Assembly: GCA_964563495.1 (NCBI GenBank)
Contig: CAZLYK010000006.1
Location: forward strand, 5,900-69,899
DNA length: 64,000 nt
Reading direction: 5' to 3'
DNA from: an uncultured Heliobacteriaceae bacterium
GTDB taxonomy: Bacteria > Acidobacteriota > Blastocatellia > RBC074
In this document: positions 9,489 through 53,944 of the stretch, in pieces
Layout: every line of letters begins with the position of its first letter
Numbering within the stretch: the stretch's first letter is position 1
Program-made: the position numbers and the translations under genes
Notes under the pieces: generated by a model
Database searches by the model: none
What the model saw: the letters and a program-made list of their open reading frames with translations, nothing else
What the model was told of the DNA's origin: nothing

Positions 9489-9489
9489 T

Positions 9490-31323: not shown

Positions 31324-32652
31324 GTGGTTAACCATAAACACGCACTATTAGACAAAATCTCCTCGCGCAGCGCGCGGGTAGGAGTCATCGGACTCGGTTA
31401 TGTCGGGCTTCCCCTGGTCGTCGAGTTCGCCCACGGCGGATTTGTATCGACCGGTTTCGAGGTCGATACCCGGAAAGCCGATGCCATCAATGCCGGCAAA
31501 TCCTACATCCCCGATGTTCCGACCTCGCAAGTCGCCGAGTTGGTAGCGGCCAAGATGCTCAGCGCCACGACCGATTTCACTGCGCTCAAAGATCAGGACA
31601 TTATCATTATCTGCGTCCCGACGCCGCTGCGTAAGACCAAAGACCCGGATGTTTCATACATTCTGGCCGCGTCGGAGAAGATTCAGGCGGCGCTCCGTCC
31701 GGGCCAGTTGATCATTCTCGAATCGACGACCTATCCGGGGACGACCGACGAGGTCTTGCGCCCGATGTTCGACGAGATCGGGCTCGAGCTCGATCAGGAC
31801 TACTTCCTCGCCTTCTCACCCGAGCGCGTCGATCCGGGCAACGAGAGGTTCAACACTCGCAACATCCCCAAAGTCGTCGGTGGGGTGACGGCGGCGAGCA
31901 CCGAAGTCGCCGCTGAAGCTTATACCGCGATCGTCGACAATGTCCATCGCGCCAGTTCGGCGCGCGTGGCTGAGACCTGCAAGTTGCTCGAAAACACCTT
32001 CCGGGCGGTCAATATCGGTCTGGTCAATGAGCTGGCGCAGCTCTGCCACACGCTCGGCATCGACACCTGGGAGGTGATCGCGGCGGCGGCCACCAAGCCT
32101 TTCGGCTTTATGCCTTTTTATCCGGGACCGGGAATCGGCGGCCACTGCATTCCACTCGATCCTCATTACCTCTCGTGGAAGGCGCGCATGCACGGTTTTG
32201 AAGCGCGATTCATCTCGCTCGCCGAAGAGGTCAATTCGCGCATGCCCGAGCACGTCGTCGATCTGGTCACCAAGGGGCTCAATCAGCACCGCAAAGCAGT
32301 CAATGGCTCGAAGATCCTGATCATGGGCGTGGCGTACAAACGCGATATCGACGATATGCGCGAAAGCCCGGCTCTGGCGATCATCGAGAATCTTCAGAAA
32401 CTCGGCGCCGAGGTGGCTTTCCACGACCCGTACGTCTCCGAGATCCATCTCGAGGCCAATGACCAACGGATGAGCGGAATTCCGTTGAGCCTCGAGGCTG
32501 TCAAAGGGGCCGATTGTGTCGTGATCGTCACCGATCATCGCAACATCGATTACGGCTGGCTGACCGAAGCGGCTCAACTGGTTGTCGATACGCGCAATTC
32601 CACCCGCGCCCTGACCGAAGAACGCTTCACCGATAAGATCATTCGGCTTTAA
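31324..32652 (+). CDS. UDP-N-acetyl-D-glucosamine/mannosamine dehydrogenase family (nucleotide-sugar dehydrogenase)
   Basis: N-terminal Rossmann RVGVIGLGYVGLPL. Catalytic Cys region (GIGGHCIPLDP). 442 aa. Confidence 0.8.
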   Translation: MVNHKHALLDKISSRSARVGVIGLGYVGLPLVVEFAHGGFVSTGFEVDTRKADAINAGKSYIPDVPTSQVAELVAAKMLSATTDFTALKDQDIIIICVPTPLRKTKDPDVSYILAASEKIQAALRPGQLIILESTTYPGTTDEVLRPMFDEIGLELDQDYFLAFSPERVDPGNERFNTRNIPKVVGGVTAASTEVAAEAYTAIVDNVHRASSARVAETCKLLENTFRAVNIGLVNELAQLCHTLGIDTWEVIAAAATKPFGFMPFYPGPGIGGHCIPLDPHYLSWKARMHGFEARFISLAEEVNSRMPEHVVDLVTKGLNQHRKAVNGSKILIMGVAYKRDIDDMRESPALAIIENLQKLGAEVAFHDPYVSEIHLEANDQRMSGIPLSLEAVKGADCVVIVTDHRNIDYGWLTEAAQLVVDTRNSTRALTEERFTDKIIRL

Positions 32653-32655
32653 AAT

Positions 32656-32696
32656 AAAGATCCCCGCCGCTTGCGGCGGGGATCTTTATTTCTTAC
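32656..32696. terminator. Bidirectional intrinsic terminator (AAAGATCCCCGCCGC-TTG-CGGCGGGGATCTTTATTTCTT)
   Basis: 13-bp GC-rich perfect stem with a T-tract. Lies between convergent genes. Confidence 0.8.
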
Positions 32697-35215
32697 TTAA
32701 CGATAAATACTTTGTGGCTGCCGGCGGGAACTCTGAAGCTGGCCGCGGCTCCGATTGAAGTGCTGCCGAGCACTTTATTATCTACCGAAACGGTGAGCTT
32801 ACGGCCCTCGATCGCGGGCAGGAGCAGTCGCACCCGGTCCTTTGTGTCGATCGTAAAACCTATCGCGTTATCGGTTGCGCGATAGCCACGCAATCTGACC
32901 GCTCCTTCGCATTCAATCTCGATCTTGCCGCCCCGGCGGATGACCAGTCGTTCCGGCCCGAAGATGGCATCCAGGCTGGATCCGGCGAATGTTACGCGTT
33001 CGATCCGCGATTCCTCAGTCGCCGAGAGGCTGCCGAAAGCCATTCCTCCCCAGATATCCGCGCTGATCAACTCTTCGATCCCGGGAAAGAACATGAGGCC
33101 CGGAAATGACGCCCGCACCGATTGATCGCTTTCGACAACCGGCCTGCCATCGAGGCTTGAATAATGGCCGTAGAGCCGGCCGGATTTTTCTGAAGCCGCC
33201 CGCGCCAGCCTGGTGCAATGACGAGACAGTTCGGCCGCTTCGTCGTGAAAGTTGTAGCGTCTGAGCCCCAGATAGACCAGGTAATTCATCAACGACCAGA
33301 CCGCTCCGCGGCCCGGTCCCTGTGGAGTGAATGCCGGGTCATCGCGCGCGATCGAAGCCAGAGGTTGATCGCCCCAGAACTTCCTGCCGTCGCGCAGCGT
33401 CGCGACCACCTTTTTGGCACGTTCTTCTTCGACCACGCCGGCGATCAGCGGATAGAAGTTCTCCGGTGAGAGCCGGCGCGAAAATCGCCCATCCCAGTGG
33501 CGGTTGAGATATAGACCGTCTTCCTCGCTCCAGAGCCTGTTGTTAATCAGTGCTTTGATTCGTTCGTAGCGGATTCGCAACCTGTCGGCTTCGGTCGGCA
33601 GCCCGAGCTCGCGGGCCATGATCGACAAGATCTCGGTATCGAGGGCGTAAAGAGAGTTGAGTGCGACCGGCGAGAATTCCAGCGTGTGAGTCGCGTCGTT
33701 GTACCTGGCCACGTCGTGCTGACGGTTGGTCGCTCCGCCCGAAGGCGGTTTCAGATCTTCTCCATTGCTCCATTGCGGCCGGTCATCGAGCCCCGATTCG
33801 GAAAAAGCTAGCCTGAGCTTGGTGGAATTCGGGAGCATGCGCGCGCCGAGAGCCCCCTGTTCGAGTTCAGCATCAAAACCCCATTCGAGCAGCCCGTCGC
33901 CGTTGCCGTCACGCCAGGATTGGCCGTCTCCGCGATTCTTCGACCACCAATCATTCCACTGCAGCAGGCGCGGATAGGCCCAGGCCAGCAATCCCAGATC
34001 GTAGGTCTCAAGATAGACCTTCCAGATGGCCATGGCCCCGACCGGAGGCATCGATCGCCCGGTCAGAGAGACCGGCTCACTGCGAGACTGGCTTTGCATG
34101 TGGCGGCGCAACGGCACGCGGCCGTCCGGCGTCTGGGTCTCGAGCAATGTCCGGATCGTCGCGGTCGCGCTTCCGGGATCGATCGGCGCGGCCATGGTCG
34201 CGGTCAGAAACGATTCCCAGCTCAGAACGGGACCGCCCTCTCTCTGGTCTTCGGGCGCGCCGGATTGCCGGTGAATCGCAAGATATTCAAGCTGCTTTTC
34301 GGGTTGATAGTAGCGGTTCCAATTAACCACCCGGCTGAGCAGATCCAGGCTCGCCCCGATCGCTCCCGCGCTCAAGGTTCGGGTCGCCTGATAATTTTTC
34401 TCAGCCAGATCAAGCGAATCGGCGATCGATCCGGGCAGCAGTTTCTCCGCCTCACGCTCCATCGAATCGAAGCTCTCGCCGATCATGGCGATAAACCCGA
34501 TCGAGGAGTCCATGCTCAGATCGAAGCTCAGCGCCGCTTGATGATAGACGCTCGGTTTATCCGATTGATCAGGCTGTTGGGCGTGGCCTTCCTTGACCAG
34601 CATTTTGCGCATGGCCGAAGCATCTTCATAGCTCGCGGCACCGATCGCCGTGCGATCGGTGCGGAGCAGGAAGCGGCGCAGAGGCGAGGCGCCGGCCTGG
34701 GTCTGAACCTGCTCTCCCAGCACCGTCCGGCGATCCGCTTGCGCCCAGAAAGTCGCCCAGCTTTCGTCGCTTCCGACGGACCTCCACGGACGATACGCCT
34801 CCATCGCGATGCGCACCCCCGGCGGCGCCGAGATTCGGCCGATCACGGTCGTCTGATTCAGCCGGCTCCATCGAAAAGTGATCGGCGTCTTCTCATCCAG
34901 CTGCGTCCGCCAGCTGACGGCTGCATACGACCCGTCTGCAGCGTGCGGCCCCAAATCGAAAACCGACGGCGCTTCCTCAAGGCTCGCTCCCTGACGGTAG
35001 ACAAGAACACGCAGGCCGAAAAAGGCCGACCCGAGAGAGCTGGAACTTCCCGAGATGAAGACCAGACCGTTAATCTGGGCTGGGTCCAACGCGCCGACCA
35101 GGACGCGATCCGTCGAAGCCGGCGGACGACCCTGAACCCCCGCGCCTGGAGGATCAAGGCAGATTACGGCCATCAATAAAACGACCGCCGTGATGATCTT
35201 AGAGGACTCGCTCAT
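32693..35215 (-). CDS. Large secreted (alpha/alpha)6-barrel glycoside-hydrolase-like protein (GH63/glucosidase-like), ~840 aa
   Basis: Probable start MSESSKIITAVVLLMAVIC (signal). Six-hairpin glycosidase-like segments (LLETQTPDGRVP, WAYPRLLQWNDWW, MNYLVYLGLRRY). Family assignment is tentative. Confidence 0.5.
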   Translation of the reverse strand: MSESSKIITAVVLLMAVICLDPPGAGVQGRPPASTDRVLVGALDPAQINGLVFISGSSSSLGSAFFGLRVLVYRQGASLEEAPSVFDLGPHAADGSYAAVSWRTQLDEKTPITFRWSRLNQTTVIGRISAPPGVRIAMEAYRPWRSVGSDESWATFWAQADRRTVLGEQVQTQAGASPLRRFLLRTDRTAIGAASYEDASAMRKMLVKEGHAQQPDQSDKPSVYHQAALSFDLSMDSSIGFIAMIGESFDSMEREAEKLLPGSIADSLDLAEKNYQATRTLSAGAIGASLDLLSRVVNWNRYYQPEKQLEYLAIHRQSGAPEDQREGGPVLSWESFLTATMAAPIDPGSATATIRTLLETQTPDGRVPLRRHMQSQSRSEPVSLTGRSMPPVGAMAIWKVYLETYDLGLLAWAYPRLLQWNDWWSKNRGDGQSWRDGNGDGLLEWGFDAELEQGALGARMLPNSTKLRLAFSESGLDDRPQWSNGEDLKPPSGGATNRQHDVARYNDATHTLEFSPVALNSLYALDTEILSIMARELGLPTEADRLRIRYERIKALINNRLWSEEDGLYLNRHWDGRFSRRLSPENFYPLIAGVVEEERAKKVVATLRDGRKFWGDQPLASIARDDPAFTPQGPGRGAVWSLMNYLVYLGLRRYNFHDEAAELSRHCTRLARAASEKSGRLYGHYSSLDGRPVVESDQSVRASFPGLMFFPGIEELISADIWGGMAFGSLSATEESRIERVTFAGSSLDAIFGPERLVIRRGGKIEIECEGAVRLRGYRATDNAIGFTIDTKDRVRLLLPAIEGRKLTVSVDNKVLGSTSIGAAASFRVPAGSHKVFIVK

Positions 35216-35352
35216 GAAACAGCCAAAGAAAATTAATCGGCGCACGGATTGACTCGATAATCACAACCCCGACAAGCTTATTTTGATCGGCACCCGCTTG
35301 CAAGCGGATTGATCCTTAATCCTTTTTAAGGCAGGATTGAACCGGGATCGAT

Positions 35353-35420
35353 CGGCGGGCGTCCCGCCCGCATGTTAGTGATCATCAACATATGCGGGGG
35401 TTCCGCCCGCGTTCCCAGGC
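35353..35420. repeat. GC-rich palindrome P1 (GGCGGGCGTCCCGCCCGCATGTT ... AACATATGCGGGGGTTCCGCCCGCGTTCCCAGG), degenerate copy of P2
   Basis: Same CCTGGGAGCGCGGGCGTCCCGCCCGCATG family as 39064-39148. Together the two bracket the rSAM-GT-SDR-GNAT cassette. Confidence 0.7.
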
Positions 35421-35435
35421 TTTGCCGAGGAGGAA

Positions 35436-35894
35436 ATGATGTCAGCACCAACCTATCGCCCGGCGATTCCTTCGGACGCCGGGATGATCGTCGAGTTTCA
35501 AATCGCCATGGCGCGTGAGACGGAAGACCTGGAATTGGATCGGGATGTTTGCAGACGCGGCGTTGAGGCGGTCTTCGCCGATCCATCGCTCGGCCGATAT
35601 TACGTCTGCCGGGAAGACGGGCGCGTCATCGGCTCGATCATGATCACATCCGAATGGAGCGATTGGCGCAACGGCGTGGTCTGGTGGATTCAGAGCGTCT
35701 ATCTCGCGCCCGAAGCACGGAACCGGGGATTTTACACCGGGCTCTACCGTTACGTTCAGCAATTGGCCGAAGCCGATCCGAAAGTGCAAGGGATCAGACT
35801 TTACGTCGATAAGCGCAATACGCGCGCCCAGCAGGTCTATGCCAGACTGGGCATGGACGGCGAGCACTATCAGGTCTACGAGTGGATGAAATGA
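35436..35894 (+). CDS. GNAT-family N-acetyltransferase
   Basis: GNAT motif A region (RNRGFYTGLYRYVQQLAEA). 152 aa. Confidence 0.7.
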   Translation: MMSAPTYRPAIPSDAGMIVEFQIAMARETEDLELDRDVCRRGVEAVFADPSLGRYYVCREDGRVIGSIMITSEWSDWRNGVVWWIQSVYLAPEARNRGFYTGLYRYVQQLAEADPKVQGIRLYVDKRNTRAQQVYARLGMDGEHYQVYEWMK

Positions 35895-35895
35895 T

Positions 35896-36642
35896 TTAAG
35901 TAATGCAGCCGCCGTCAATGGTCACGACCTCGCCGATCATATAGCTGTTCTTTTCCGAGACCATGAAGGCGGCGAACTCGGCGAGTTCTTCCGGGTGGCC
36001 GCGACGCGCCTTGGCGCACCAGTATTTGTGCATTTCGAGCGCGTGTTGGGGCAGCAGGTCCGAAAGATCGGTCTCGTAGATGCCGGCGGCGATGGCGTTG
36101 ACCACGACGCCGAAGGGCGCGGCTTCGCGCGAAAGACATTTGGTGAAGCCAATGACGGCGGCTTTCGAGGTCGCATAATGAACGGCCGTCGGCAGCGCGC
36201 GGATGGCGCCGATGCTGCTGATATTCAGAATATGCCCGTCACGCTGTCTGAGCATGTGTTTGAAGACCGGCTTGGTCACGTTGAAAAGCCCGTTGACGTT
36301 GGTGTCTATCACCGTGTGCCAGGAGTGCTCGGTCATGGTCGCAAAATTGTCGCCGCGGTTGATCGCGGCGTTGTTGACCAGAATATCGATCCGGCCGAAT
36401 TCGTGATGGATTTCGCGGATCATCTTGTTGATCGCCGGTCGATCGGTGATCGAGACCTGATAGGCCAGCCCTTTTCGGCCGCAGAAGCGGATCCTTTCCA
36501 ATACTTGCTCGGCCAGGTCGTCGCGAGAGTTGTAGTTGAACGCGATGTCCGCTCCTTCACGGGCGAAGATCTCGCACAAAGAGCGGCCGATGCCGCGCGT
36601 CCCTCCGGTGATAACCGCTTTTTTCCCTTCGAGTAATCCCAT
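35896..36642 (-). CDS. Short-chain dehydrogenase/reductase (FabG-like)
   Basis: TGGTRGIGRS cofactor motif. NNAA motif. S-YxxxK catalytic triad (YATSKAA). Confidence 0.8.
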   Translation of the reverse strand: MGLLEGKKAVITGGTRGIGRSLCEIFAREGADIAFNYNSRDDLAEQVLERIRFCGRKGLAYQVSITDRPAINKMIREIHHEFGRIDILVNNAAINRGDNFATMTEHSWHTVIDTNVNGLFNVTKPVFKHMLRQRDGHILNISSIGAIRALPTAVHYATSKAAVIGFTKCLSREAAPFGVVVNAIAAGIYETDLSDLLPQHALEMHKYWCAKARRGHPEELAEFAAFMVSEKNSYMIGEVVTIDGGCIT

Positions 36643-36678
36643 AATTATTCTTCGATTGGTTGTCAGACACGGCTTTTC

Positions 36679-37833
36679 TTAGACTTTTCGCATGAGCTCA
36701 TCGACGATCCGGCGCGTCGCGTCGGGGATCGCGACGCGCGAGGCCGCGATCCGCATGGAAGACAACTGAGACGGCTCGTTGATCAGCTCGCGGATGATCG
36801 GAACGATGTCACGCGACCGCTTGAGCAGGACGCCGGCGCGATGCCTCGAAATCAGATTGGCCGTCTGCGATTCCTGGGGCATCGGCGGAGTGGTGGTGTC
36901 TGCGATGATCGGCAATCGCGAGGCGAAGGCTTCGAAAGTCGTCAGGCCGCCGAGTTTCGAGACCATGACGTCGGCCGCGCTCATGAGCTTCTCCATCGCG
37001 TTGGTGTAGCCGATCACCCTCGCCGGGAACGGCGCGTGTTTGACCATCCCGCTGATCCGATCGCGCAATTTCTCGTTGCGACCGGCGAGAAAGATCGCCT
37101 GAGCGTCTTTGATCTGATCGCCCCGCTCGATCATCTGTTCGAAGATCTGCGGGATATTCCCGCCGCCGACCCAGCCGGCGTTGATGAAGACCGTGAATTT
37201 TTCGGGAGCCAAACCCAGCTCAGAGCGCGCCGCTGCCTTCTCCTCCTCATTCTGAAACTGAAATTTGGGATGGATCGGGATCCCGCAAATTTTGATCTTC
37301 TCGACGGGAACACCGTAATCGATCAACTGTTGTCTGGCCTCTTCGGTCGCCACCAGGTAAAGGCTGACATCTTCACAAGCCCACCCGCGCCAGAACCCGT
37401 AACACGGGTCGGTCACGACGGTGACCAGCGGAATCCGGTCGAGCAACCCGAGCTCGCGGAGCATTCTCCCGGTAAAATGCTGCGTCAGGGGATGGACCGA
37501 GATGACGATCTGCGGGCAGTATTTCTCAAAGAGATGCCGCCCATAACGTGTCGTCATCCGATATAAGAGATTCGATTCGTTCGGACGAAACCGCTCGATC
37601 GCCCAGTAGTAGTACTTCATGAGGTGCTGGTGATTGCGGAGCAGGTAGTTATAGAGTTCGGCCAGCTTCTCAACCAGCACGTTCGATTCCTCGAGTGCAC
37701 GCGCGATATTGATCAGACAATCGTGCGCGCCGAATCTGATCAGCCCATCGGCGATGGCAGTCGCGGCGCTGGTATGCCCGCCTCCGGTCTCAGAGGTGAT
37801 GATCAGGAATTTTTTAGCGTTCTCAGTCGACAT
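36679..37833 (-). CDS. Glycosyltransferase of the MGDG-synthase / diacylglycerol glycosyltransferase family (UgtP/YpfP-like, GT28)
   Basis: N-terminal MGDG_synth-type motif (KKFLIITSETGGGHTSAATAIADGL). GT28 C-terminal domain. Probable start MSTENAKK. Confidence 0.75.
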   Translation of the reverse strand: MSTENAKKFLIITSETGGGHTSAATAIADGLIRFGAHDCLINIARALEESNVLVEKLAELYNYLLRNHQHLMKYYYWAIERFRPNESNLLYRMTTRYGRHLFEKYCPQIVISVHPLTQHFTGRMLRELGLLDRIPLVTVVTDPCYGFWRGWACEDVSLYLVATEEARQQLIDYGVPVEKIKICGIPIHPKFQFQNEEEKAAARSELGLAPEKFTVFINAGWVGGGNIPQIFEQMIERGDQIKDAQAIFLAGRNEKLRDRISGMVKHAPFPARVIGYTNAMEKLMSAADVMVSKLGGLTTFEAFASRLPIIADTTTPPMPQESQTANLISRHRAGVLLKRSRDIVPIIRELINEPSQLSSMRIAASRVAIPDATRRIVDELMRKV

Positions 37834-37897
37834 AATCGCAAGGGTGATCCAACAAAGCCGGCTCTTTATCGAGTCGACGGGGTTCGGGATCTCACTC

Positions 37898-39046
37898 TCA
37901 GGCCGTCTGCGGAGCGAGATCCGAGGCGGTATCACCCGCGTGTGACTTCTTGAGCTCCCTTTCCAGCCGCTTGATCTGGATCAGGTGCTTCGGATTGAAA
38001 GCCAGTGACGGGTAATAACAGTTCGATTCGTGGGTGCAAAAACAGCCCTGCTTGATCTGACGGCGTCGGGCATCGAGCTCGGGCGAATTCCAAAGGGCCC
38101 AAAAGTTCCAATCATAATCGCGCAGATTGCCGATCGGGTCGAGGTTTTCACAGCTCGAAACCGTGCCCTCGTCATAAATCACGCCGCCGGTCGTGCCGGC
38201 GAAACAGCGCAACTGGGCCTTGTTCTGCTCTTCGGTGCGGGCGATCATCTCGTGCATATAGATATCGACGGCCGCCTTGAGGTATCCGCCGTCACCCCGG
38301 TAATGATTCTTGATCACGCCGCGCCGTGAGTCCTCGTCGATCATCCGTGACAGCCTGCGGTAGCGGTTGAGGTCGATCTTCAATTCCTCGGGTCTGGCCG
38401 ACGGCGGGCGGATATAATTGACGTTGATCTTGTCCGGTTTGAGCTCAAAGCGGAGGAAGTCGTACCATTCGAAGATGCTCTCCTGGTTCGAATTCATCAA
38501 GCAGGTGCAGGTCTGTAGGTCAAGCCGCGGGATTTCACGCTGGATCGATTGTAATTGGCGCGCGGTATCGATCGCCGTGTCCCAGCTGCCGGGTTTCTGC
38601 CGGATCTTCTCGTGCTGATCCTTCAACCCGTCGATCCCCAGCGCGACGGTGAGGTTGAGATTCGGACACTCTTCGAGGATTCGCGCGACGTCCGGGATGA
38701 TCCGCTTTTGAATCTGGCCGTTTGACATGAGATAGACCGATTCGAGCTGGTTGTTTTGATAAAACGCTCGAACGACCTCGGGCAGATCTTTGCGAGTGAA
38801 AGGCTCACCGCCGGCGATGATCAGGATCGGCAGCTTCCCGCCGAGTGTTTCGCTGATGCGCCCCAGCTGATCGGTGGTCATTTGCAGCTTTTTACGCGGC
38901 TGGTCGTCGAGCTCGTCGGTGAAAAAGCAATGGAGACACCGCATGTCGCAAACCGAAGTGATCAAAAGATTGAGGATAACCGGCGAGGTCACTCCGCCGG
39001 CCAGTACTTTGCCGTAGCGTTTGATTAGTTCGAGGTTATAGTTCAT
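37898..39046 (-). CDS. Radical SAM protein with C-terminal SPASM/twitch-like Cys cluster
   Basis: CxxxCxxC (CDMRCLHC). GGEP motif. C-terminal CFAG...C...C...CFC...C cysteines. Probable start MNYNLELIK. First gene of the rSAM-GT-SDR operon. Confidence 0.8.
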   Translation of the reverse strand: MNYNLELIKRYGKVLAGGVTSPVILNLLITSVCDMRCLHCFFTDELDDQPRKKLQMTTDQLGRISETLGGKLPILIIAGGEPFTRKDLPEVVRAFYQNNQLESVYLMSNGQIQKRIIPDVARILEECPNLNLTVALGIDGLKDQHEKIRQKPGSWDTAIDTARQLQSIQREIPRLDLQTCTCLMNSNQESIFEWYDFLRFELKPDKINVNYIRPPSARPEELKIDLNRYRRLSRMIDEDSRRGVIKNHYRGDGGYLKAAVDIYMHEMIARTEEQNKAQLRCFAGTTGGVIYDEGTVSSCENLDPIGNLRDYDWNFWALWNSPELDARRRQIKQGCFCTHESNCYYPSLAFNPKHLIQIKRLERELKKSHAGDTASDLAPQTA

Positions 39047-39063
39047 AAATCTTCTCCGAAAAA

Positions 39064-39148
39064 CCCTGGGAGCGCGGGCGTCCCGCCCGCATCGGGTAAT
39101 GGCCACTTTCTTCGCCGGAACATGCGGGCGGGACGCCCGCGCTCCCAG
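39064..39148. repeat. GC-rich palindrome P2 (CCTGGGAGCGCGGGCGTCCCGCCCGCAT ... ATGCGGGCGGGACGCCCGCGCTCCCAGG)
   Basis: 28-nt perfect arms with a 29-nt spacer. Each arm contains its own GCGGGCG-TCC-CGCCCGC mini-hairpin. Confidence 0.8.
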
Positions 39149-39295
39149 GATTGCATTCTTTCCGGGCGTCGTTTGACGACATGAAATGACTTCTCAGAAA
39201 AACCTGAGATCGCGGTTTATGAGACCAGAGGACAGGAAACGCAATATTAAGCGTCGTTTGCCGCGCAAAGTCAACCGAACCTGGAAGGCGGGTTA

Positions 39296-40255
39296 TTGGT
39301 AAGATCTATCATGCTCAAACATCCATTAACACGGATCGATCGCGATCAAAATCTGCGCCGGGAGCTGCTCGCTTACTGTCGCCTCAAACCGGGCCAGGTC
39401 TGGCGGGATCGGCGGAGCGGTCATCGCGTCGGATGCCTGGACGCGGCCTCGCGCCGGGACGTCTTGAAACTGAGCGGAAAATCCCGCGCTTCGCTCGCGA
39501 TCCACGATTTGCCTTATAACTTTATCGCTTTCGAGCAGCGAAGGGTCGATGATTTCATCGAATGGTGCCGGCAGGTGATCAGCCACACCGACGAAGCCCT
39601 GCTCGACGATAGCAGCCTCTACCTATGGATCGGGGCGGATCAACGGGCGGGGTTCGCACCGCTGCCCGAACTCATGTTGATGATGCGGGAGACAAATTTC
39701 ACTTCGCGCAGCTTGATCACCATGCGCAACCAACGCGGTTACGGCACGCAGAAAAACTGGATGAGCGTCCGGCAGGAACTGCTCTATTACACCAAAGGGA
39801 AGCCCCGCTTTGTTCCCCAGTATACCGGGATCCCCAAGACGTTGAGGGGCTATTACAAAGAGATCAACGGCCAGATGACCGAGAATACCGCGCGTGGTCG
39901 GTCTGAGACGCTTCGCGCCGGCAACGTCTGGATCGATGTCCAGCAGGTGTTTTATCGCATGGAAGAGAATGTCAATGGATGTTACGCGCAGAAGCCGCTC
40001 AAGTCGATCGAGCGGATCATCGCGGCCAGCTCGTCACCGGGAGATATCGTGCTCGATCTCTTCGCGCATTCAGGGACGACGCTGCTCGCCGCCGAGATGC
40101 TCGGTCGCGTCTGTTATACCCTCGAGATAGACCCGATCTTTTGTGAGATCACGATTCGGCGCCTCGAGCATTTTCGCCGGACCGGACGAACCGGCTGGCA
40201 GAACAGCAATCCATTTGCTCACGAGTTGGGCCAAACAGGAGGTCAAGATGAGTAA
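39296..40255 (+). CDS. Orphan beta-class DNA amino-methyltransferase (N6-adenine or N4-cytosine)
   Basis: Motif IV DLPYN precedes motif I DLFAHSGTT (beta-class order). N-terminal GQVW...GHRVGCLDA typical of this family. No restriction endonuclease gene adjacent. Confidence 0.75.
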   Translation: MVRSIMLKHPLTRIDRDQNLRRELLAYCRLKPGQVWRDRRSGHRVGCLDAASRRDVLKLSGKSRASLAIHDLPYNFIAFEQRRVDDFIEWCRQVISHTDEALLDDSSLYLWIGADQRAGFAPLPELMLMMRETNFTSRSLITMRNQRGYGTQKNWMSVRQELLYYTKGKPRFVPQYTGIPKTLRGYYKEINGQMTENTARGRSETLRAGNVWIDVQQVFYRMEENVNGCYAQKPLKSIERIIAASSSPGDIVLDLFAHSGTTLLAAEMLGRVCYTLEIDPIFCEITIRRLEHFRRTGRTGWQNSNPFAHELGQTGGQDE

Positions 40256-40883
40256 TGCGTTTTGGAAATTGATGACCGTAATTCTCCTGGTTTTCGCCCT
40301 CGCGGCGATCTATTTTATGTTCGGTGGGAAGCAACTCTACGATCTCTTCATTCCCCGTGGCGACGTCCTGAAGACGGCTACCAGCACCCTGCTCAGGATC
40401 GAGCGCGAAAACAGCCTGGTTACCACCACGGCTTATGTCCAGGCGGTCGTCCGGCAGAAGGACATTCAATGGTACGGCGACGCTCAGGTCGTCCGGATCG
40501 TTCCGGCGAAGATCCACTACGCCGTCAACCTGGCTGAAATCGATCCTCACGCCATGGAGTACGACGAAAAGGCCAGGGTGCTATACGTGCCTCTGCCCGA
40601 TATCAAAATTCAATCGATCGATCCCGATCTGACCAAAGCCGAGGTCATCCGGAGCATTGACCTCTTTCGATCGGAGTCCCTGACCGGCAACGTCCTGGAA
40701 GATACGACTGAAAAGATGGTCCGCCCGACCCTCGAAGAGATGGGAAAATCCCCGGATATCACCAGGATCGCGAGAGATCAGGCGCTGCTATCGGTCAAGC
40801 AGCTGCTCGAATCGGCGCTCAATGCGACCGGATCACGAGTCCAGGTCCGCCCGTATTTCAAAAGCGAGGGCAAAAAAGCATGA
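40248..40883 (+). CDS. N-terminally membrane-anchored hypothetical protein (DUF4230-like?), translationally coupled to the methyltransferase
   Basis: SD AGGAGG at 40238-40243. ATGAGTAA overlap with the upstream stop. Single TM (LMTVILLVFALAAIYFMF). Confidence 0.5.
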   Translation: MSNAFWKLMTVILLVFALAAIYFMFGGKQLYDLFIPRGDVLKTATSTLLRIERENSLVTTTAYVQAVVRQKDIQWYGDAQVVRIVPAKIHYAVNLAEIDPHAMEYDEKARVLYVPLPDIKIQSIDPDLTKAEVIRSIDLFRSESLTGNVLEDTTEKMVRPTLEEMGKSPDITRIARDQALLSVKQLLESALNATGSRVQVRPYFKSEGKKA

Positions 40884-42982: not shown

Positions 42983-43966
42983 TTAGCCGGAAGACGGGAA
43001 GACCTTGAAATCATTGCGCGTGTGACATTTGTTGCACGAGCCTCCGCCTTGACTGCCGGGTTCGCCGCTGAAGACCTTCCGCCCATAATGCATTCCGCCG
43101 TCGTGACAGCTGAAACACCCGCGACCGCTGCGCTCGGCCGGGCTGATATGCTGTTTGACTTTTAACGAGGTCGGAGTCGGTTGATTGTAACCGCCAGAGA
43201 TCGTGTGGCACATGTCGCACTTGCCGTTCATGTAGCCGACGTGCGATTTGTGCGTGAAGAGCGCGCCATACGCCCGGCTGACGTATTTGGCTGAAAACGG
43301 CTGGGCGCCGGAGACCACGGCGGTGTGGCAGGCGACGCACCCCGATTTTTGAGCCGCCTTTTGATCAGTGCTTGCCGGCGAATGGCAGAGATAGCATTCC
43401 GGATGTGCAGCGATGGTCAGGACGGCCGGCCTGGGTTCCTGTCTATGGCAGAAGTTGCAGTTCAGTTTTTCTACGGACCGCGGCATGTTGTAGCCCGCGT
43501 GCAGTTCGTGCTGGCGCGCATCGAAGAGCGCATTGAAATCGGATCGCTGCGGAAAGTCGCGCTGGGGCGGGCGCGCGGGTAATTCCGCCGGCTGTCCGCC
43601 TCTCGTTTCGTGACAGATGGTGCAGGTCTGCTGCGGTTGCGCGGTGAATTGCGAGATGTGGCATTCGACGCAGGCTTTATGCCCGGGGAACCTGAGGCTC
43701 AGCTGTTGATTGCGTGCCGTTGTCTCGACCAGACCGGTGATCGGGTCGCGCCGATCGTGACACGATTCGCATTTCAGTACGCGAGCGTGATTGGTGCCGG
43801 GTACGCTGATCGTGCCGAGGTGCGATTTATGGGTGAACCGCTCGTAGTTTTTCGGCGGCTGGCCCGCCGGATTCTGCTCACCCTGCGCGAGCGGGGGCTT
43901 GAACAGGTTTAGGCAAACAGCCAGGCTGCAGCAGACCAGCACAATTTTGATTCTCTCGATCGACAT
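42983..43966 (-). CDS. Nonaheme c-type cytochrome (9 CxxCH), periplasmic/secreted
   Basis: Probable start MSIERIKIVLVCCSLAVCL. CESCH, CVECH, CTICH, CNFCH, CYLCH, CVACH, CDMCH, CFSCH, CNKCH. Two FTHKSH motifs. Confidence 0.8.
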   Translation of the reverse strand: MSIERIKIVLVCCSLAVCLNLFKPPLAQGEQNPAGQPPKNYERFTHKSHLGTISVPGTNHARVLKCESCHDRRDPITGLVETTARNQQLSLRFPGHKACVECHISQFTAQPQQTCTICHETRGGQPAELPARPPQRDFPQRSDFNALFDARQHELHAGYNMPRSVEKLNCNFCHRQEPRPAVLTIAAHPECYLCHSPASTDQKAAQKSGCVACHTAVVSGAQPFSAKYVSRAYGALFTHKSHVGYMNGKCDMCHTISGGYNQPTPTSLKVKQHISPAERSGRGCFSCHDGGMHYGRKVFSGEPGSQGGGSCNKCHTRNDFKVFPSSG

Positions 43967-43992
43967 ATTTCCGTTCGTCTCAATCATCCTGT

Positions 43993-45210
43993 CTATTGCT
44001 TTGCTTTGACAAGATGGTTCGGGGGCGGCAATTGAACGCCCCTCCCCGCGAATTCCCTGATCGTCTGGAGCGAGTGGCAGTAATTGCATCTGGCGCTTTC
44101 AATCGTCACGGCTCCTTCGATCTTTGTCTGCATCTCTTTTTTATGGCATTCAATGCAGCTCGTGATGAGCGGCTGCTTCTCTTTCATCTTGCGGTCTTCG
44201 AGATAGAAGTCAGCCCGCGTCTGAGCGGTCTTTCCCGTCGCGTGACACGAGAGGCAGTCCGGGACGCTCTTGCCGACATTCTCAAAATGGGTTTTGTGAC
44301 TGAATGGGAGCGGAGATTTGACGGCGGTTTTTTTCGGGTTGAGCTCCGTGTTGATGATCCGGCGCGCGAACCAGAGGGCAGCCAACTCCGAGCCTTTGAC
44401 CGGGCGGCCGTCTTTCAATGGGTTGCCGACGGATCGATGGCAGCCGGTGCAGTTGGTGGCGAAAGTGTTCTTCGGGTCGGGCTTCTCTTTTTTCGGCGGC
44501 GTGATGATCTTCGAATCAAAATGGCAGATGAAGCATTCGGCATGGCCGGGTGAGCTCATCTTGGTGCTGGTGGAGAAATCCATCTTCGCCACGGTGACCG
44601 GCGATGGATTGGCTGTATGGCACGCGCCGCATTCGAACCTGTGCTTGTCCAGACCTTTGTTCGCTTTGACGTCGGCCTTCGCGTCATAGAATTTGACCCG
44701 TTCCCTGAGCGCGGTCGTGGTCGCATACTGCTCGAAGAAATCCACGTGCTCGCCGTGCGAGTAGAAATCGTAAAACTGCGAGGCTCCGCCGCCGTTGGGA
44801 TTGGGGAAGCGGCGGATGTTGGTGGCCATCTGCCGTGGATTGACCGTCAGCTGGTCGTGGCAGATGGCGCACATGTCGCGCTGAAATCCGGCGCCGGTGA
44901 AGGCATGGCATTCGGTGCAGGCCGAATGCGTCTTTTCCTGTTTGAGGCCGAGTTTGTGGCTCGGATAACCCATGGTCGCCAGATCGTGCTGGTCCTGACC
45001 GAGCCTGTCTCGGACTGCCGCGCCGTGACAATAATCGCAGTCGATCTCGAAGGTTTTATTCTTATCGATCAGGCTTTTGACCTGGCCGGCGTGTGATTTA
45101 TGCGTGAATCGAGAGAACTTCGATGGCGTCACCGGCTGTCTTTGAGCGGCCGCTCCCTGCCAGAAGAAGCAGCCGATAATGAAGAATGAGGCGACAACGA
45201 ACTGTTTCAT
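43993..45210 (-). CDS. Nonaheme c-type cytochrome (9 CxxCH), periplasmic/secreted
   Basis: Signal peptide. CDYCH, CTECH, CAICH, CGACH, CFICH, CTGCH, CLSCH, CIECH, CNYCH. FTHKSH and FSHKTH motifs. Confidence 0.8.
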   Translation of the reverse strand: MKQFVVASFFIIGCFFWQGAAAQRQPVTPSKFSRFTHKSHAGQVKSLIDKNKTFEIDCDYCHGAAVRDRLGQDQHDLATMGYPSHKLGLKQEKTHSACTECHAFTGAGFQRDMCAICHDQLTVNPRQMATNIRRFPNPNGGGASQFYDFYSHGEHVDFFEQYATTTALRERVKFYDAKADVKANKGLDKHRFECGACHTANPSPVTVAKMDFSTSTKMSSPGHAECFICHFDSKIITPPKKEKPDPKNTFATNCTGCHRSVGNPLKDGRPVKGSELAALWFARRIINTELNPKKTAVKSPLPFSHKTHFENVGKSVPDCLSCHATGKTAQTRADFYLEDRKMKEKQPLITSCIECHKKEMQTKIEGAVTIESARCNYCHSLQTIREFAGRGVQLPPPNHLVKAKQ

Positions 45211-48068: not shown

Positions 48069-50054
48069 GTGCGAATTCGCATTTTTTCAGTGTTTCTTCT
48101 TCATCTTCTTCTTGCGTTCTGCCCGACGAGTGGTATTGCCCAGGAGCCGGCGAGCGGCTCAAAGCAGGCAACCGGCCAACTGGCCGACCAGATGGCTGAG
48201 CGACTGAAGAATCGGTTGCCGCAGGAGCTTTCGCAACTACCGGCGAAGAAGAATGCGCAACCATCCGCGCCGCTGCGAATCAAGCCGCCGGAGACGGCTG
48301 TCCAGCAAACAGAGAGGCCGAAGTTGCGGTTGCCGGAGGAGAGGCCGCTCGGAGCTTCGGGGCCGTCGCGAGACAGGCGCAAGCCGGCGACCGAGGACGC
48401 CGATTTTATCGTGATCCAGGACCGCTGGCGGATCGGCCTGCCTGAAGATCCGAGGTTTCGCAAAGGCGACATCTTCAATCCTTATCGTCAAAACGTCCTC
48501 AAAGGCGATTATCCAATCGCCGGCAACGACGTCTTTTTGAATATTACGCTCGCCAGCGAGAGCGATTTCAACGTCCGGCGGGTGCCGTTGCCGCAGGGTG
48601 TCAGTGCGCAGCTGCCGGGCAGTCTCGAGTTCTTCGGGCGCGGCCGCCAGGAAGCCTTCAATCAGAACTTCATCTTCTCGCTCGATCTTTTTCGCGGAGA
48701 TGCGTCGTTCAAACCCGTAGACTGGCGGTTCAAAGTCACCGGCATCGCCAATCTCAATCTGCTCAACGTGCGTGAGCGCGGGGTCACCAATGTCGACGTG
48801 CGCAGGGGGACGACGCGCTGGGACGGGTTCAACTCGATCGAAGAGGTCTTTTACGAATACCGGATCGGCGACACGCCGAGGATCTTTCCCTTCCTGCGCG
48901 GCAAAGGCAGTCGCGATGGCCGATCGCCCGCTTTCGATACGACCTCGATCCGCGTCGGGATACAGCCGTTCACCAGCGATTTCCGCGGCTTTATCTTCAG
49001 CGATGCGAACCTGGGAGCGCGCCTCTTCGGCAACTTTAGCTCGAACCGCTGGCAGTACAATCTGGCCTACTTCAATCTGCTCGAGAAAGAGACCAACAGC
49101 CAGCTCAATACCATCAATTTTGCCGAGACCAAATTTCGCAATCAATCGGTCTACATCGCCAATCTCTACCGCCAGGACACATTTGTGCTCGGCTACACGA
49201 CGCAGTTCAGCCTCCATTACAGCGATGACCGTGCGACGGTCGAATACGATCAGAACGGTTTTCTGGTCCGCCCGGCGAGGATCGGCACGGTTACACCGCA
49301 CCGCGTGCGCTCGGGTTATTTGGGCTGGACTGGAGACGGTCATTTCGGGCGTTACAATCTGACGCACGCGTTTTACCAGGCGATCGGGCGCGACACCTTC
49401 AATCCACTGGCGCAGCGCGGGACGCGGATCAACGCCCAGATGGCCGCGGCCGAAGCCTCGGTCGACTATGATTGGCTGCGCTATCGAGTCGGGGTCTTTT
49501 ACACTTCCGGGGATTCCAAGCCGACTGACGGGACGGCGCGCGGGTTCGATGCGATCCTGGACAATCCGAACTTCGCCGGAGGGAGGTTCAGCTTCTGGAA
49601 CTCACAGGGGATTCGCCTGACGCAGACGTCGGTCGCGCTGGTCGAGCCGCGCAGCCTGATCCCCAGCTTGCGCACCAGCAAGCTGCAGGGCCAGGCAAAC
49701 TTCGTCAATCCGGGTTTGACGCTCTACAACGCGGGGATCGATGTCGATCTCACGCCGAAGCTGCGCGGCTTCATTAATTACAATTATTTACGATTCAACC
49801 GCACCGAGCCGCTCGAGCTCTTGTTGTTCCAACCGGCCATTCGCCACGAGATCGGTCACGATCTCGGAGTCGGTTTTATCTACCGGCCGTTGTTGAACGA
49901 GAACATCGTCCTGATCGGCGGCGCCTCGGGTCTCAGACCCGGCCGAGGATTTACGGATATTTACAGCTCGAATTGCAACGGCCTTCCGGCCGGCTGCGGG
50001 GCGGGCAGCCCGACCCTCTGGTCGGCTTTCGTGACCTTGAAATTCGTTTATTGA
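48069..50054 (+). CDS. Putative outer-membrane beta-barrel protein (661 aa)
   Basis: Signal peptide. Pro/Arg-rich linker. Long beta-rich region with alternating hydrophobic residues. C-terminal ...VTLKFVY (terminal aromatic). Stop is 7 nt before the decaheme gene. Confidence 0.5.
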
Positions 50055-50061
50055 ACAGACA

Positions 50062-53944
<3,883 letters not shown>

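Follow-up and report, generated by a model that had tools for sequence, protein, structure and literature searches.

The stretch of DNA analysed here (the window, 64,000 nucleotides) carries on its minus strand three neighbouring genes, coding for a radical SAM enzyme (rSAM), a GT28 glycosyltransferase and a FabG-like SDR, all of which were confirmed (Table 1). The tight minus-strand order of rSAM, UgtP-like glycosyltransferase and FabG-like SDR described in the sequence-only reading was borne out by the coordinates and by the family matches; the GNAT gene, which had been taken for divergent, turned out to be convergent with the SDR gene. The gap between the glycosyltransferase and SDR genes measures 36 nt and that between rSAM and the glycosyltransferase at most 64 nt, while an alternative GTG start of the latter at 37935 would create a 38-nt overlap with rSAM. 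The ATG start of rSAM matches the length of 382-383 aa found in more than 100 homologues.

Table 1. Features of the rSAM locus, in positions of the window.
Feature	Position	Strand	Description
rSAM	37898-39046	minus	382 aa, ATG start
GT28 glycosyltransferase, MGD1/UgtP type	36679-37833	minus	384 aa from ATG
FabG-like classical SDR	35896-36642	minus	248 aa
GNAT	35436-35894	plus	tail to tail with SDR
Promoter-like TTGACT-N17-CTTAAT	39243-39274	minus	upstream of rSAM
Perfect 28-bp inverted repeat (hairpin, then GTTTTTCGG)	39065-39149	minus	between promoter and RBS

The promoter-like motif TTGACTTT…GCTTAATA recurs in the related loci L001, L003-L008 and L011-L014, being conserved in the clade of the window, and it probably marks the start of the transcription unit. 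The leader hairpin is missing from the loci of relatives and is therefore taken as a probable palindromic insertion rather than a defining part of the module. Its interpretation as a riboswitch or attenuator was dropped, as Rfam returned spurious miRNA-precursor matches only and the relatives do without it. Two further groups of genes were considered and set aside, namely a nearby GH63-like hydrolase with a UDP-sugar dehydrogenase, which are syntenic in close relatives only, and NtrY/NtrX-like two-component genes, candidate regulators located upstream in Pyrinomonadaceae and missing in the lineage of the window.

Conservation of the arrangement was assessed in 80 GTDB species loci of close rSAM orthologues, filtered by the length of downstream sequence. 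The GT28 gene directly follows rSAM in 64 of the 68 loci having at least 2.5 kb downstream, and the full triad with the SDR is present in 48 of the 54 loci having at least 4.5 kb, an arrangement far beyond chance. At this frequency the SDR counts as a third, lineage-specific component of the module; in a few genomes it is swapped for a carbamoyltransferase, as in L038, where a sugar-decorating NodU/CmcH carbamoyltransferase stands in its place. Across Blastocatellia and Pyrinomonadaceae, identities reach 69-87% for rSAM, 52-80% for the glycosyltransferase and 57-83% for the SDR, and the triad is kept while the flanking genes vary between lineages, so the earlier treatment of the three genes as a unit holds. 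At 65% identity or more, rSAM orthologues occur in Blastocatellia alone, and a genome scan with a narrower rSAM alignment recovered close Blastocatellia orthologues only. The genes might nonetheless be adjacent by descent only, with unrelated functions, as the closest genomes share a broader, functionally meaningless synteny (Mtase, DUF4230, EamA) and four of the 80 species loci hold an rSAM without GT28 within 8 kb. This explanation is hardly credible, because the pairing outlasts a complete turnover of the flanks and, in the wider family described below, even the replacement of the glycosyltransferase family (GT2 to GT28) and gene fusion.

The glycosyltransferase carries GGGHTSAATAIADGL. Enzymes of the GT28 MGDG-synthase/UgtP type are defined by an N-terminal PF06925 domain with a GGGH motif and by a GT-B C-terminal domain, and the protein shows both, matching the Pfam MGDG_synth profile (PF06925) at 84 bits (cutoff 25) along the whole profile (positions 1-169 of 169). 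Its nearest solved relatives are plant MGD1 (4wyi, 3e-34, residues 3-379) and UgtP (9wde, 9e-28), and the UgtP equivalog model NF010135 gives 167 bits, short of its cutoff of 500. MurG, an affiliation which had been named beforehand as incompatible with a lipid module, is matched in the C-terminal half only (TIGR01133, 31 bits against 250; PDB 3s2u, 6e-4). At family level the protein can be assigned by its profile matches to the diacylglycerol glycosyltransferases (MGD1/UgtP) and not to MurG, in agreement with the original call of a UgtP/YpfP-like glycolipid synthase.

The SDR belongs to the classical SDRs (adh_short, PF00106, 181 bits, 1e-53), with the motifs TGGTRGIG, NNAA and S…YATSK, and its best PDB match is the FabG of S. 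aureus (3osu, 1e-51). The description as FabG-like is therefore appropriate, though the score of 217 bits lies below the FabG equivalog cutoff of 298 (TIGR01830). Assignment as a FabG equivalog also calls for both ACP-docking arginines; what we take to be the equivalent of Arg129 in FabG numbering is kept, and the presumed equivalent of the ACP-binding Arg172 is Phe.

The rSAM protein is a member of the radical SAM superfamily (Pfam Radical_SAM, PF04055, 52 bits, cutoff 29.5), with a partial TIM-barrel core, the CX3CX2C motif CDMRCLHC (C33, C37, C40) and the SAM-binding GGE at 79-81. Its C-terminal part holds the cysteines C281, C299, C335, C337 and C343 in an auxiliary motif CX17C…CXC, of which C281-X12-G294-X4-C299 and C335-X-C337 are invariant in the alignment and accompanied by one more nearby cysteine, here C343; four invariant cysteines and one nearby are enough for one auxiliary cluster. 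A full SPASM domain, with two auxiliary clusters, requires seven cysteines in the pattern CX9-15GX4C…CX2CX5CX3C…C together with a score that passes the Pfam SPASM threshold, whereas the twitch type is a truncated SPASM beta-hairpin in which CX(n)GX4C and two more cysteines ligate a single cluster, as in BtrN, MoaA, SkfB and BlsE. Pfam SPASM scores 17 bits, under its cutoff of 21.5, and the N_Twi_rSAM model 44 bits against 170. Judged by its cysteine pattern, the C-terminal region probably holds a motif of the twitch type for a single cluster; from the earlier description of a Cys-rich SPASM/twitch-like region, the twitch part is retained and the seven-cysteine SPASM is not.

No curated annotation covers the family. 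The window rSAM fails the Tes, HpnH, AhbD, NirJ and MftC thresholds, and NCBIfam scans of the window rSAM and 30 family members returned nothing near any cutoff. A PDB sequence search yielded core-level matches only (MoaA, viperin, GDGT-MAS, SkfB), while structural comparison placed SkfB, SuiB, CteB and PqqE on top, with BlsE and DesII among the nearest. With a core beginning near residue 24 of 382, the protein has no N-terminal extension, and no N-terminal lipid domain, RRE or B12-binding domain (PF02310) was found in it. Moreover, TM segments are predicted in none of the three proteins.

The sequence-only reading had placed this enzyme beside Tes, Mss and Grs and linked it to brGDGT and iso-diabolic acid. 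Accordingly, rSAM would alter hydrocarbon tails by iso-diabolic acid coupling, bridging, cyclisation or ether formation, as a functional counterpart to Tes, Mss, Gms or Grs, and the SDR would reduce an oxo-acyl intermediate. Those enzymes are likewise radical SAM enzymes acting on membrane lipids, and Gms and Tes contain SPASM-type domains. However, none of the features tested for membership in Tes, Gms or Grs was found in rSAM. Tes proteins are about 490-530 aa long, with an extra lipid-binding region, and are recognised by the NF045702 cutoff; the profile classification against Tes that had been suggested as a check gave 33.3 bits against 450, over the rSAM core only. The GDGT-MAS structure 7tol matches at E 2.7e-4 over residues 21-142, with a TM of 0.43. 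Gms combines an AhbD-like core (~36% identity, e-79) with an N-terminal COG4001 lipid-pocket extension of ~100 aa and is clustered with tes or mss (PMC11214058), but the AhbD/Gms-type model gives rSAM 46 bits, where the cutoff is 500, and the extension is missing. GrsA and GrsB are marked by an N-terminal PF02310 domain fused to the rSAM core, absent here. Furthermore, the close orthologues occur in Blastocatellia only, whereas iso-diabolic acid is found also in acidobacterial subdivisions 1, 3 and 6, and no acidobacterial genome screened by the same authors contained Mss homologues (PMC13159169). Mss itself is recognised by homology to the enzyme of T. maritima or T. ethanolicus (at least 30% identity, E at most 1e-50). 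No tes or mss homologue was found among the annotated neighbours in the window or the related loci, and the constant genomic partner of the wider rSAM family is a glycosyltransferase instead. Tail chemistry is thus distinctly improbable, and as the missing acidobacterial synthase of iso-diabolic acid or brGDGT the locus is a poor candidate. From the broader proposal of lipid tailoring or coupling, what persists is a lipid module with a partner of the diacylglycerol-glycosyltransferase family, and what finds no support is the coupling of tails.

Clustered at 50% identity, the wider rSAM family comprises 517 cluster representatives at E ≤ 1e-30 and 2,061 at E ≤ 1e-10, and the contexts of distant relatives were taken from contig look-ups and a metagenome scan. 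Relatives at 30-46% identity, spread over many phyla, have an adjacent GT2 on the same strand in 50 of 78 metagenomic loci; three of these 78 loci hold an ORF of more than 600 aa, a probable fusion, two an adjacent GT4, and the remainder are mostly short contigs. GT2-rSAM or rSAM-GT2 fusions were found in at least eight cluster representatives, with TM segments between the two domains, and in one relative (37% identity) the next gene, overlapping with that of the radical SAM enzyme, again codes for an MGDG_synth glycosyltransferase, with no SDR. The GT2 partners, which have two to three C-terminal TM helices, match GT21, a family of ceramide-GlcT type. The clusters also include LPG_synthase_TM flippase-like proteins, a CDP-alcohol phosphatidyltransferase, PMT_2/YfhO GT-C, GT4 and DPM-like GT2 proteins, a set that is, by family membership, lipid-linked sugar machinery. 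Relatives partnered with glycosyltransferases occur in glycan clusters of Nanoarchaeota, Omnitrophica and Nitrospirae. The adjacency and fusion with GT2 speak for a role of the family in lipid-linked glycosylation and not in the coupling of lipid tails, and membrane GT2 partners within glycoconjugate clusters suggest that the chemistry takes place on the side of the sugar or head group.

A glycosyltransferase partner would also suit a maturase of a RiPP or of a peptide-derived cofactor, whose product the glycosyltransferase would glycosylate and the SDR use or tailor, as in the mycofactocin system with the rSAM-SPASM enzyme MftC, the GT2 MftF and dedicated SDRs. The top structural matches SkfB, SuiB, CteB and PqqE are in line with this, as are WgkB, the best NCBIfam match among family members (5e-28), and MftF, the best match of the GT2 partners of distant relatives at 95-133 bits, a range below its cutoff of 280. 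On the other hand, in approximately 76 Blastocatellia and 78 wider-family loci no small ORF is conserved within 2.5 kb of rSAM, and the only ones to recur are a HicA/HicB pair in four loci. The MftC model TIGR03962 gives 38 bits against 265, the RRE and the N-terminal extension are missing, rSAM has only one auxiliary-cluster motif and the glycosyltransferase here is a lipid-type GT28. A RiPP clade with a precursor peptide nearby, cited at the outset as the sign of such a maturase, did not emerge, as neither precursor peptide nor RRE was found, and peptide maturation is very improbable.

A different possibility is that rSAM and the SDR act on a soluble precursor, making from it an unusual nucleotide-sugar donor or an unusual acceptor for subsequent use by GT28, with a glycolipid or a soluble glycoside as the product. 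DesII and BlsE, which act on nucleotide-linked sugars, are among the nearest structures, the three proteins are without TM segments, and nucleotide-sugar enzymes are found in some wider-family clusters, which contain a GDP-mannose dehydratase-like protein, DegT and C-methyltransferases. Such neighbours are nevertheless rare, with DegT in 1 of 80 loci and extended SDRs in 5 of 80, and the SDR of the triad is not of the extended, nucleotide-sugar type. The fusions, moreover, put rSAM and a membrane-embedded GT2 on one polypeptide, which favours action of rSAM at the membrane on the product of the glycosyltransferase, and leaves the soluble-precursor explanation unlikely. A parallel with BtrN and its aminotransferase was dropped for the wider family, given the single locus with DegT.

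The reading that we prefer, at a probability of roughly 0.45, goes beyond family membership and sees the triad as an operon for a tailored membrane glycolipid, in which rSAM would tailor the sugar and the SDR reduce a keto intermediate, after the manner of Cds/HpnJ, BtrN or AprD4-AprD3. From what is known of its family, GT28 would use a UDP-sugar to place a hexose on diacylglycerol or on a related lipid alcohol of the membrane. The 5'-deoxyadenosyl radical of rSAM would then remove a hydrogen atom from the sugar, most probably once this is lipid-bound, with the single auxiliary [4Fe-4S] cluster accepting or donating a second electron, and the product may be a keto-sugar, with or without dehydration, or an intermediate with a rearranged ring. 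The carbonyl left by rSAM would be reduced by the NAD(P)H-dependent FabG-like SDR, so that the head group would end up epimerised, deoxygenated or carbocyclic. The pair of rSAM and lipid glycosyltransferase would form the core of the system and the SDR a lineage-specific tailoring step. Several points count against this reading. The SDR is classical and not of the extended type typical of sugar-nucleotide chemistry, so that acyl-chain chemistry would fit it equally well; the substrate of rSAM could be the nucleotide-sugar donor or the acceptor, ahead of transfer; the best match of the distant GT2 partners, far under its cutoff, is a cofactor glycosyltransferase, MftF; and GT28 is missing from the four species loci mentioned above. 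In the literature, no report was found of this cluster or of an unusual Blastocatellia glycolipid.

Several known systems resemble the proposed glycolipid pathway in part. BtrN (2-deoxy-scyllo-inosamine dehydrogenase) is a twitch rSAM, much shorter at ~250 aa and with only ~15% identity to the enzyme described here; BtrN also differs in having a soluble aminocyclitol substrate and an aminotransferase partner instead of an SDR or GT28. AprD4/AprD3, responsible for the C3' deoxygenation of apramycin, is a distant fold match that acts on a pseudodisaccharide antibiotic and has no lipid glycosyltransferase. In cyanobacteria, the GlcDG synthase MgdA and the head-group epimerase MgdE first make a hexosyl-diacylglycerol and then alter the sugar on the lipid, a likeness in the two steps; no radical SAM enzyme is involved, and MgdA is a GT2, not a GT28. 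The MgdE epimerase has a Rossmann/SDR-type domain.

Precedents for radical SAM enzymes acting on a lipid-bound hexose after a glycosyltransferase are Cds, in the formation of calditol, and HpnI/HpnJ (PMC13459092, PMC9385802, PMC9092360). In the system of HpnI, HpnJ, HpnK and HpnL, which makes the cyclitol ether of bacteriohopanetetrol, a lipid glycosyltransferase adds a hexosamine and the radical SAM enzyme contracts the ring of the lipid-bound sugar, following the same logic (PMC13459092), and the wider-family clusters share with it a GT21/HpnI-like GT2 and an HpnL-like LPG_synthase_TM protein. The locus differs in its GT28, in a presumed diacylglycerol acceptor instead of a hopanoid, in the absence of an HpnK deacetylase and in the added SDR, and HpnJ is a radical SAM enzyme with a B12-binding domain, which rSAM lacks. 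The HpnH model (TIGR03470) matches rSAM in the N-terminal half only, at 51 bits against 225, HpnJ (TIGR03471) is missing from the 25 best NCBIfam matches of rSAM, and no shc or hpn genes are present among the annotated ORFs of the window. Cds of Sulfolobus acidocaldarius (Saci_1489) takes over from a glucosyltransferase, acting on the hexose bound to a glycerolipid, and yields a hydrolysis-resistant head group (PMC9385802, PMC9092360, PMC13459092). The likeness is one of reaction logic; Cds is archaeal, uses a GDGT substrate and has no partner SDR described.

The near-obligate pairing or fusion of this family with membrane-anchored glycosyltransferases, in Bacteria as well as in DPANN archaea, suggests an unexplored radical editing of lipid-linked sugars, for which the locus offers a three-gene candidate with a conserved promoter, and rSAM loci occur in no fewer than 80 genomes at species level. 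Members of Blastocatellia and Pyrinomonadaceae abound in soils that are dry and oligotrophic, and lipids from acidobacteria serve as environmental proxies. In a more speculative extension, which is rather improbable, the twitch-rSAM family would be an unrecognised, phylum-spanning group of lipid-linked-sugar remodellers acting at the membrane, in every case paired or fused with a membrane glycosyltransferase, and in Blastocatellia it would convert hexosyl-diacylglycerol to a carbocyclic, hydrolysis-resistant head group or to another without precedent. If true, the system would be a bacterial, non-homologous counterpart of Cds and HpnJ, and its product a distinctive biomarker lipid for drought-adapted soil bacteria.

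The radical SAM (rSAM), glycosyltransferase (GT28) and SDR genes follow one another with gaps of at most 64 nt between the first two and 36 nt between the last two. The ATG start of the rSAM gene is consistent with a length of 382-383 aa in more than 100 homologues, and an alternative GTG at 37935 would lengthen the glycosyltransferase, giving a 38-nt overlap with the rSAM gene. A consensus scan of 35300-39400 returned four terminator-like sites, close to the count in shuffled sequence and all inside coding regions. The GNAT gene, described as divergent in the sequence-only reading, is convergent with the SDR gene, since it is encoded on the plus strand and its end falls one base short of the SDR stop.

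Coordinates of the triad and of other features (window positions unless a locus is named)
Feature	Position	Strand	Remark
rSAM gene	37898-39046	minus	first of three consecutive genes; 382 aa
Glycosyltransferase gene	36679-37833	minus	second gene; 384 aa from ATG
SDR gene	35896-36642	minus	third gene; 248 aa
GNAT gene	35436-35894	plus	
Perfect 28-bp inverted repeat	39065-39092 and 39122-39149	minus	leader of rSAM gene; 29-nt loop
Decamer CAAACGACGC	39251-39260 and 39166-39175		rSAM upstream region
N6/N4 DNA methyltransferase (PF01555)	39296-40255		divergent from rSAM gene
DUF4230 gene	40248-40883		overlaps methyltransferase gene
Mannosylglycerate-hydrolase-like (GH63-type) protein	32693-35245		850 aa; just past GNAT
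UDP-ManNAc/UDP-sugar dehydrogenase	31324-32652		just past GNAT
Multihaem c-type cytochromes	2781-3929; 42983-44089; 43993-45210; 49973-53944		many CXXCH
HicB/HicA-like insertions	L020 9174-9634; L022 6323-6783; L024 ~9400-9630; L028 9173-9634		Pyrinomonadaceae loci
NodU/CmcH-family carbamoyltransferase	L038 10442-12118		after GT28
Cluster of a 34% rSAM relative	L092 817-6886		

The three-gene order, which the sequence-only reading had recognised, is that of a conserved operon. The nearest rSAM homologues (86-87% identity) come from MAGs of Blastocatellia and other Acidobacteriota, which places the window in Blastocatellia. With each GTDB species represented by one genome, a scan yielded at least 542 rSAM relatives, and the best 80 of these, all from Blastocatellia or Pyrinomonadaceae and 69-87% identical, were searched at locus level by tblastn with the window proteins. 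Where at least 2.5 kb of downstream sequence is available, GT28 comes next on the same strand in 64 of 68 loci; where at least 4.5 kb is available, GT28 and then the SDR follow in 48 of 54. In four loci, no GT28 lies within 8 kb of the rSAM. In two loci, a carbamoyltransferase occupies the usual SDR place, which suggests an alternative decoration of the same sugar. The genes flanking the triad vary between lineages: a divergent DNA methyltransferase, DUF4230 and EamA in the window's lineage, a histidine kinase and NtrC-type regulator upstream with LpxD and PriA downstream in Pyrinomonadaceae, and yet another set of neighbours around a 65%-identical relative. Within the 4 kb examined upstream, genes for a sensor kinase (NtrY-like) and a sigma-54 activator (NtrX/NtrC-like) directly precede the rSAM gene on the same strand in about 50 Pyrinomonadaceae loci besides L018 and L029; the window's lineage lacks both.

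A promoter-like TTGACT-N17-CTTAAT lies 5' of the rSAM gene and is kept in the window's clade. The leader inverted repeat, placed between this motif and the rSAM ribosome-binding site, occurs once in the window, has a predicted RNA hairpin energy of about -84 kcal/mol and is followed by GTTTTTCGG. It was not found in the 17 related loci examined, and Rfam returned only spurious miRNA-precursor matches; candidate explanations are the insertion of a palindromic element and attenuation by a terminator-like structure. The repeated decamer is a possible operator; one copy overlaps the promoter spacer, and a related palindrome, GTCGTTTGAC…GTCAAACGAC, takes the same position in loci L007 and L008.

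Elsewhere in the window, only the closest relatives share the methyltransferase-DUF4230 pair in synteny, and no restriction enzyme is annotated among the methyltransferase's neighbours. The GH63-type protein and the UDP-sugar dehydrogenase were left out of the module, as they too are syntenic in the closest relatives only. The multihaem cytochrome genes, one encoding 1323 aa with LVIVD repeats, adjoin FG-GAP/ASPIC proteins and TonB-dependent receptors, and the multihaem capacity is unusually large for a Blastocatellia genome.

The rSAM carries its cluster motif CX3CX2C at C33/C37/C40, GGE at 79-81 and C-terminal cysteines C281, C299, C335, C337 and C343. Across 30 aligned family members (28-63% identity), the positions that never vary include the three cluster cysteines, GGE, C281, G294, C299, C335 and C337; from C281 on they define an auxiliary motif CX12GX4C (CX17C) followed by CXC. 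These predicted ligands suffice for one auxiliary cluster, twitch-like as in BtrN, but a full SPASM domain would need seven cysteines. Accordingly, Pfam places Radical_SAM over threshold and SPASM below it (17 bits, cutoff 21.5); in the SPASM/twitch-like region initially described, the cysteines fit a one-cluster twitch-type motif and do not make up a full SPASM domain. No curated NCBIfam model came near threshold for this protein or any of the 30 relatives, the window rSAM scoring 65 bits with NirJ2 (cutoff 500), 51 with HpnH (225), 46 with AhbD (500) and 38 with MftC (265).

A confident AlphaFold model built on the 30-member alignment (pLDDT 91.6) begins its barrel at about residue 24, preceded only by a short helix, and the enzyme therefore lacks an RRE, a B12-binding domain and an N-terminal lipid-pocket domain. 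Fold comparison gave SkfB 23.8, BlsE 23.1, SuiB 22.6, anSME 21.1, viperin 21.1, MoaA 19.9, GDGT-MAS 17.5, DesII 17.5 and BtrN 14.4; peptide- and sugar-modifying enzymes tie, and the substrate is thus not readable from the fold. A role as RiPP or cofactor maturase is unlikely, since the RRE is missing and no conserved small ORF, and hence no precursor peptide, was found within 2.5 kb on either side of the rSAM in about 76 Blastocatellia and 78 wider-family loci. The only recurrent small ORFs belong to the HicB/HicA-like toxin-antitoxin pair inserted between rSAM and GT28 in four Pyrinomonadaceae loci, where it separates two genes that otherwise lie close together.

At family level, sequence comparison places the second protein among the diacylglycerol glycosyltransferases, in agreement with the MGDG-synthase/UgtP-like assignment made at the outset. 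Its N-terminal MGDG_synth domain is complete (84 bits, cutoff 25) and contains a GGGH motif, and its alignments to plant MGD1 (3e-34) and UgtP (9e-28) span the whole protein, while a grouping with MurG was not seen (6e-4 in the PDB search; 31 bits against a cutoff of 250 in NCBIfam). The UgtP equivalog model remains below cutoff (167 bits, cutoff 500), leaving donor sugar and acceptor lipid undefined. The third protein is a classical FabG-like SDR (TIGR01830, 217 bits, below the cutoff of 298), whose closest solved structure is S. aureus FabG (1e-51).

A search of 1.84 billion cluster representatives set the rSAM in a wider family: identity falls sharply from 65% to about 41%, and the numerous full-length relatives beneath this drop share 28-37% (517 matches at E ≤ 1e-30; 2,061 at E ≤ 1e-10). 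At least eight representatives are fused to a GT2 domain, either N-terminal (P0215, P0225, P0230, P0234, P0238, P0260, P0268) or C-terminal (P0130), and hydrophobic segments separate the domains in both GT2-first fusions that were checked (P0215 and P0230). P0215 adjoins a second SPASM rSAM and a B12-rSAM (locus L093). In contig look-ups, a 41% relative adjoins a metallophosphoesterase and an extended SDR in divergent orientation. The gene after a 37% relative overlaps it and encodes an MGDG_synth glycosyltransferase, and 34% relatives have a GT2 as the overlapping next gene. One cluster with a 34% relative, in L092, combines an Fe-ADH, a CDP-alcohol phosphatidyltransferase (inositol-phosphate-synthase-like), the rSAM, a GT2, an LPG_synthase_TM flippase-like protein and a GT4, and looks like a complete head-group pathway around the rSAM relative.

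With the distant group as seed, a metagenome scan gave 80 loci, 78 of which had an rSAM ORF after ORF calling and phmmer. A same-strand GT2 is adjacent in 50 of the 78, the rSAM ORF exceeds 600 aa (taken as a probable fusion) in three, and a GT4 is adjacent in two; the remaining 23 lie mostly on contigs too short for a call. In Pfam, the GT2 partners match Glyco_transf_21 (ceramide-glucosyltransferase type), and they bear two or three C-terminal TM helices. Long contigs, with Nanoarchaeota, Omnitrophica and Nitrospirae as named sources, hold glycoconjugate clusters with DPM-like GT2, PMT_2/YfhO GT-C, GT4, GT9, flippase-like proteins and B12-rSAMs. From these adjacent and fused GT2s, the GT28 and the glycosyltransferase-rich contexts it follows that the constant of this twitch-type family is a membrane glycosyltransferase. 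In Blastocatellia and one distant lineage the partner is GT28 in place of GT2, apparently through non-orthologous replacement by a different type of enzyme that is also known to glycosylate membrane lipids.

These associations argue against the lipid-tail chemistry (Tes/Grs/Mss-like) suggested by the sequence-only reading. The appeal of that idea comes from the acidobacterial gap in iso-diabolic acid enzymes: the discoverers of Mss found no homologue in Acidobacteria and inferred an unknown route there (PMC13159169). However, when the rSAM was checked for the defining features of Tes, Grs and Gms, none was found, the Tes model scoring 33 bits against a cutoff of 450 and a B12 domain being absent. 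Iso-diabolic acid is also found in subdivisions 1, 3 and 6, but close orthologues are confined to Blastocatellia; the wider family, with its constant glycosyltransferase partner, sits in glycan clusters, and its host organisms are not known to make such lipids.

Our main reading is that the triad tailors the sugar or head group of a glycolipid, to which, over the three outcomes below taken together, we assign a probability somewhat short of even (about 45%). The glycosyltransferase would make a hexosyl lipid, from whose sugar the rSAM would abstract hydrogen, its auxiliary cluster handling the second electron; the resulting ketone, dehydrated ketone or ring-rearranged species would have its carbonyl reduced by the SDR. 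The net outcome would be epimerisation, through BtrN-type oxidation and stereo-inverting reduction, deoxygenation following the logic of AprD4/AprD3, or carbocycle formation following that of Cds/HpnJ (PMC13459092, PMC9385802, PMC9092360). A serious variant has the rSAM act on a soluble nucleotide-sugar before transfer, but the fusions to membrane-embedded GT2s and the scarcity of nucleotide-sugar enzymes among the neighbours make it less likely.

For glycolipid tailoring, HpnI/HpnJ and Cds are closest in logic, as in both a lipid glycosyltransferase works first and an rSAM then acts on the sugar it has attached; the HpnJ family, however, has a B12 domain and does not include the window rSAM. 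No description of an rSAM-GT28-SDR module, or of its rSAM family, was found in the literature. The locus drops out as a candidate for brGDGT or iso-diabolic acid synthesis. The triad is a compact, readily testable candidate source of a new bacterial glycolipid, and it exposes a widespread, uncharacterised pairing of rSAM enzymes with glycosyltransferases.
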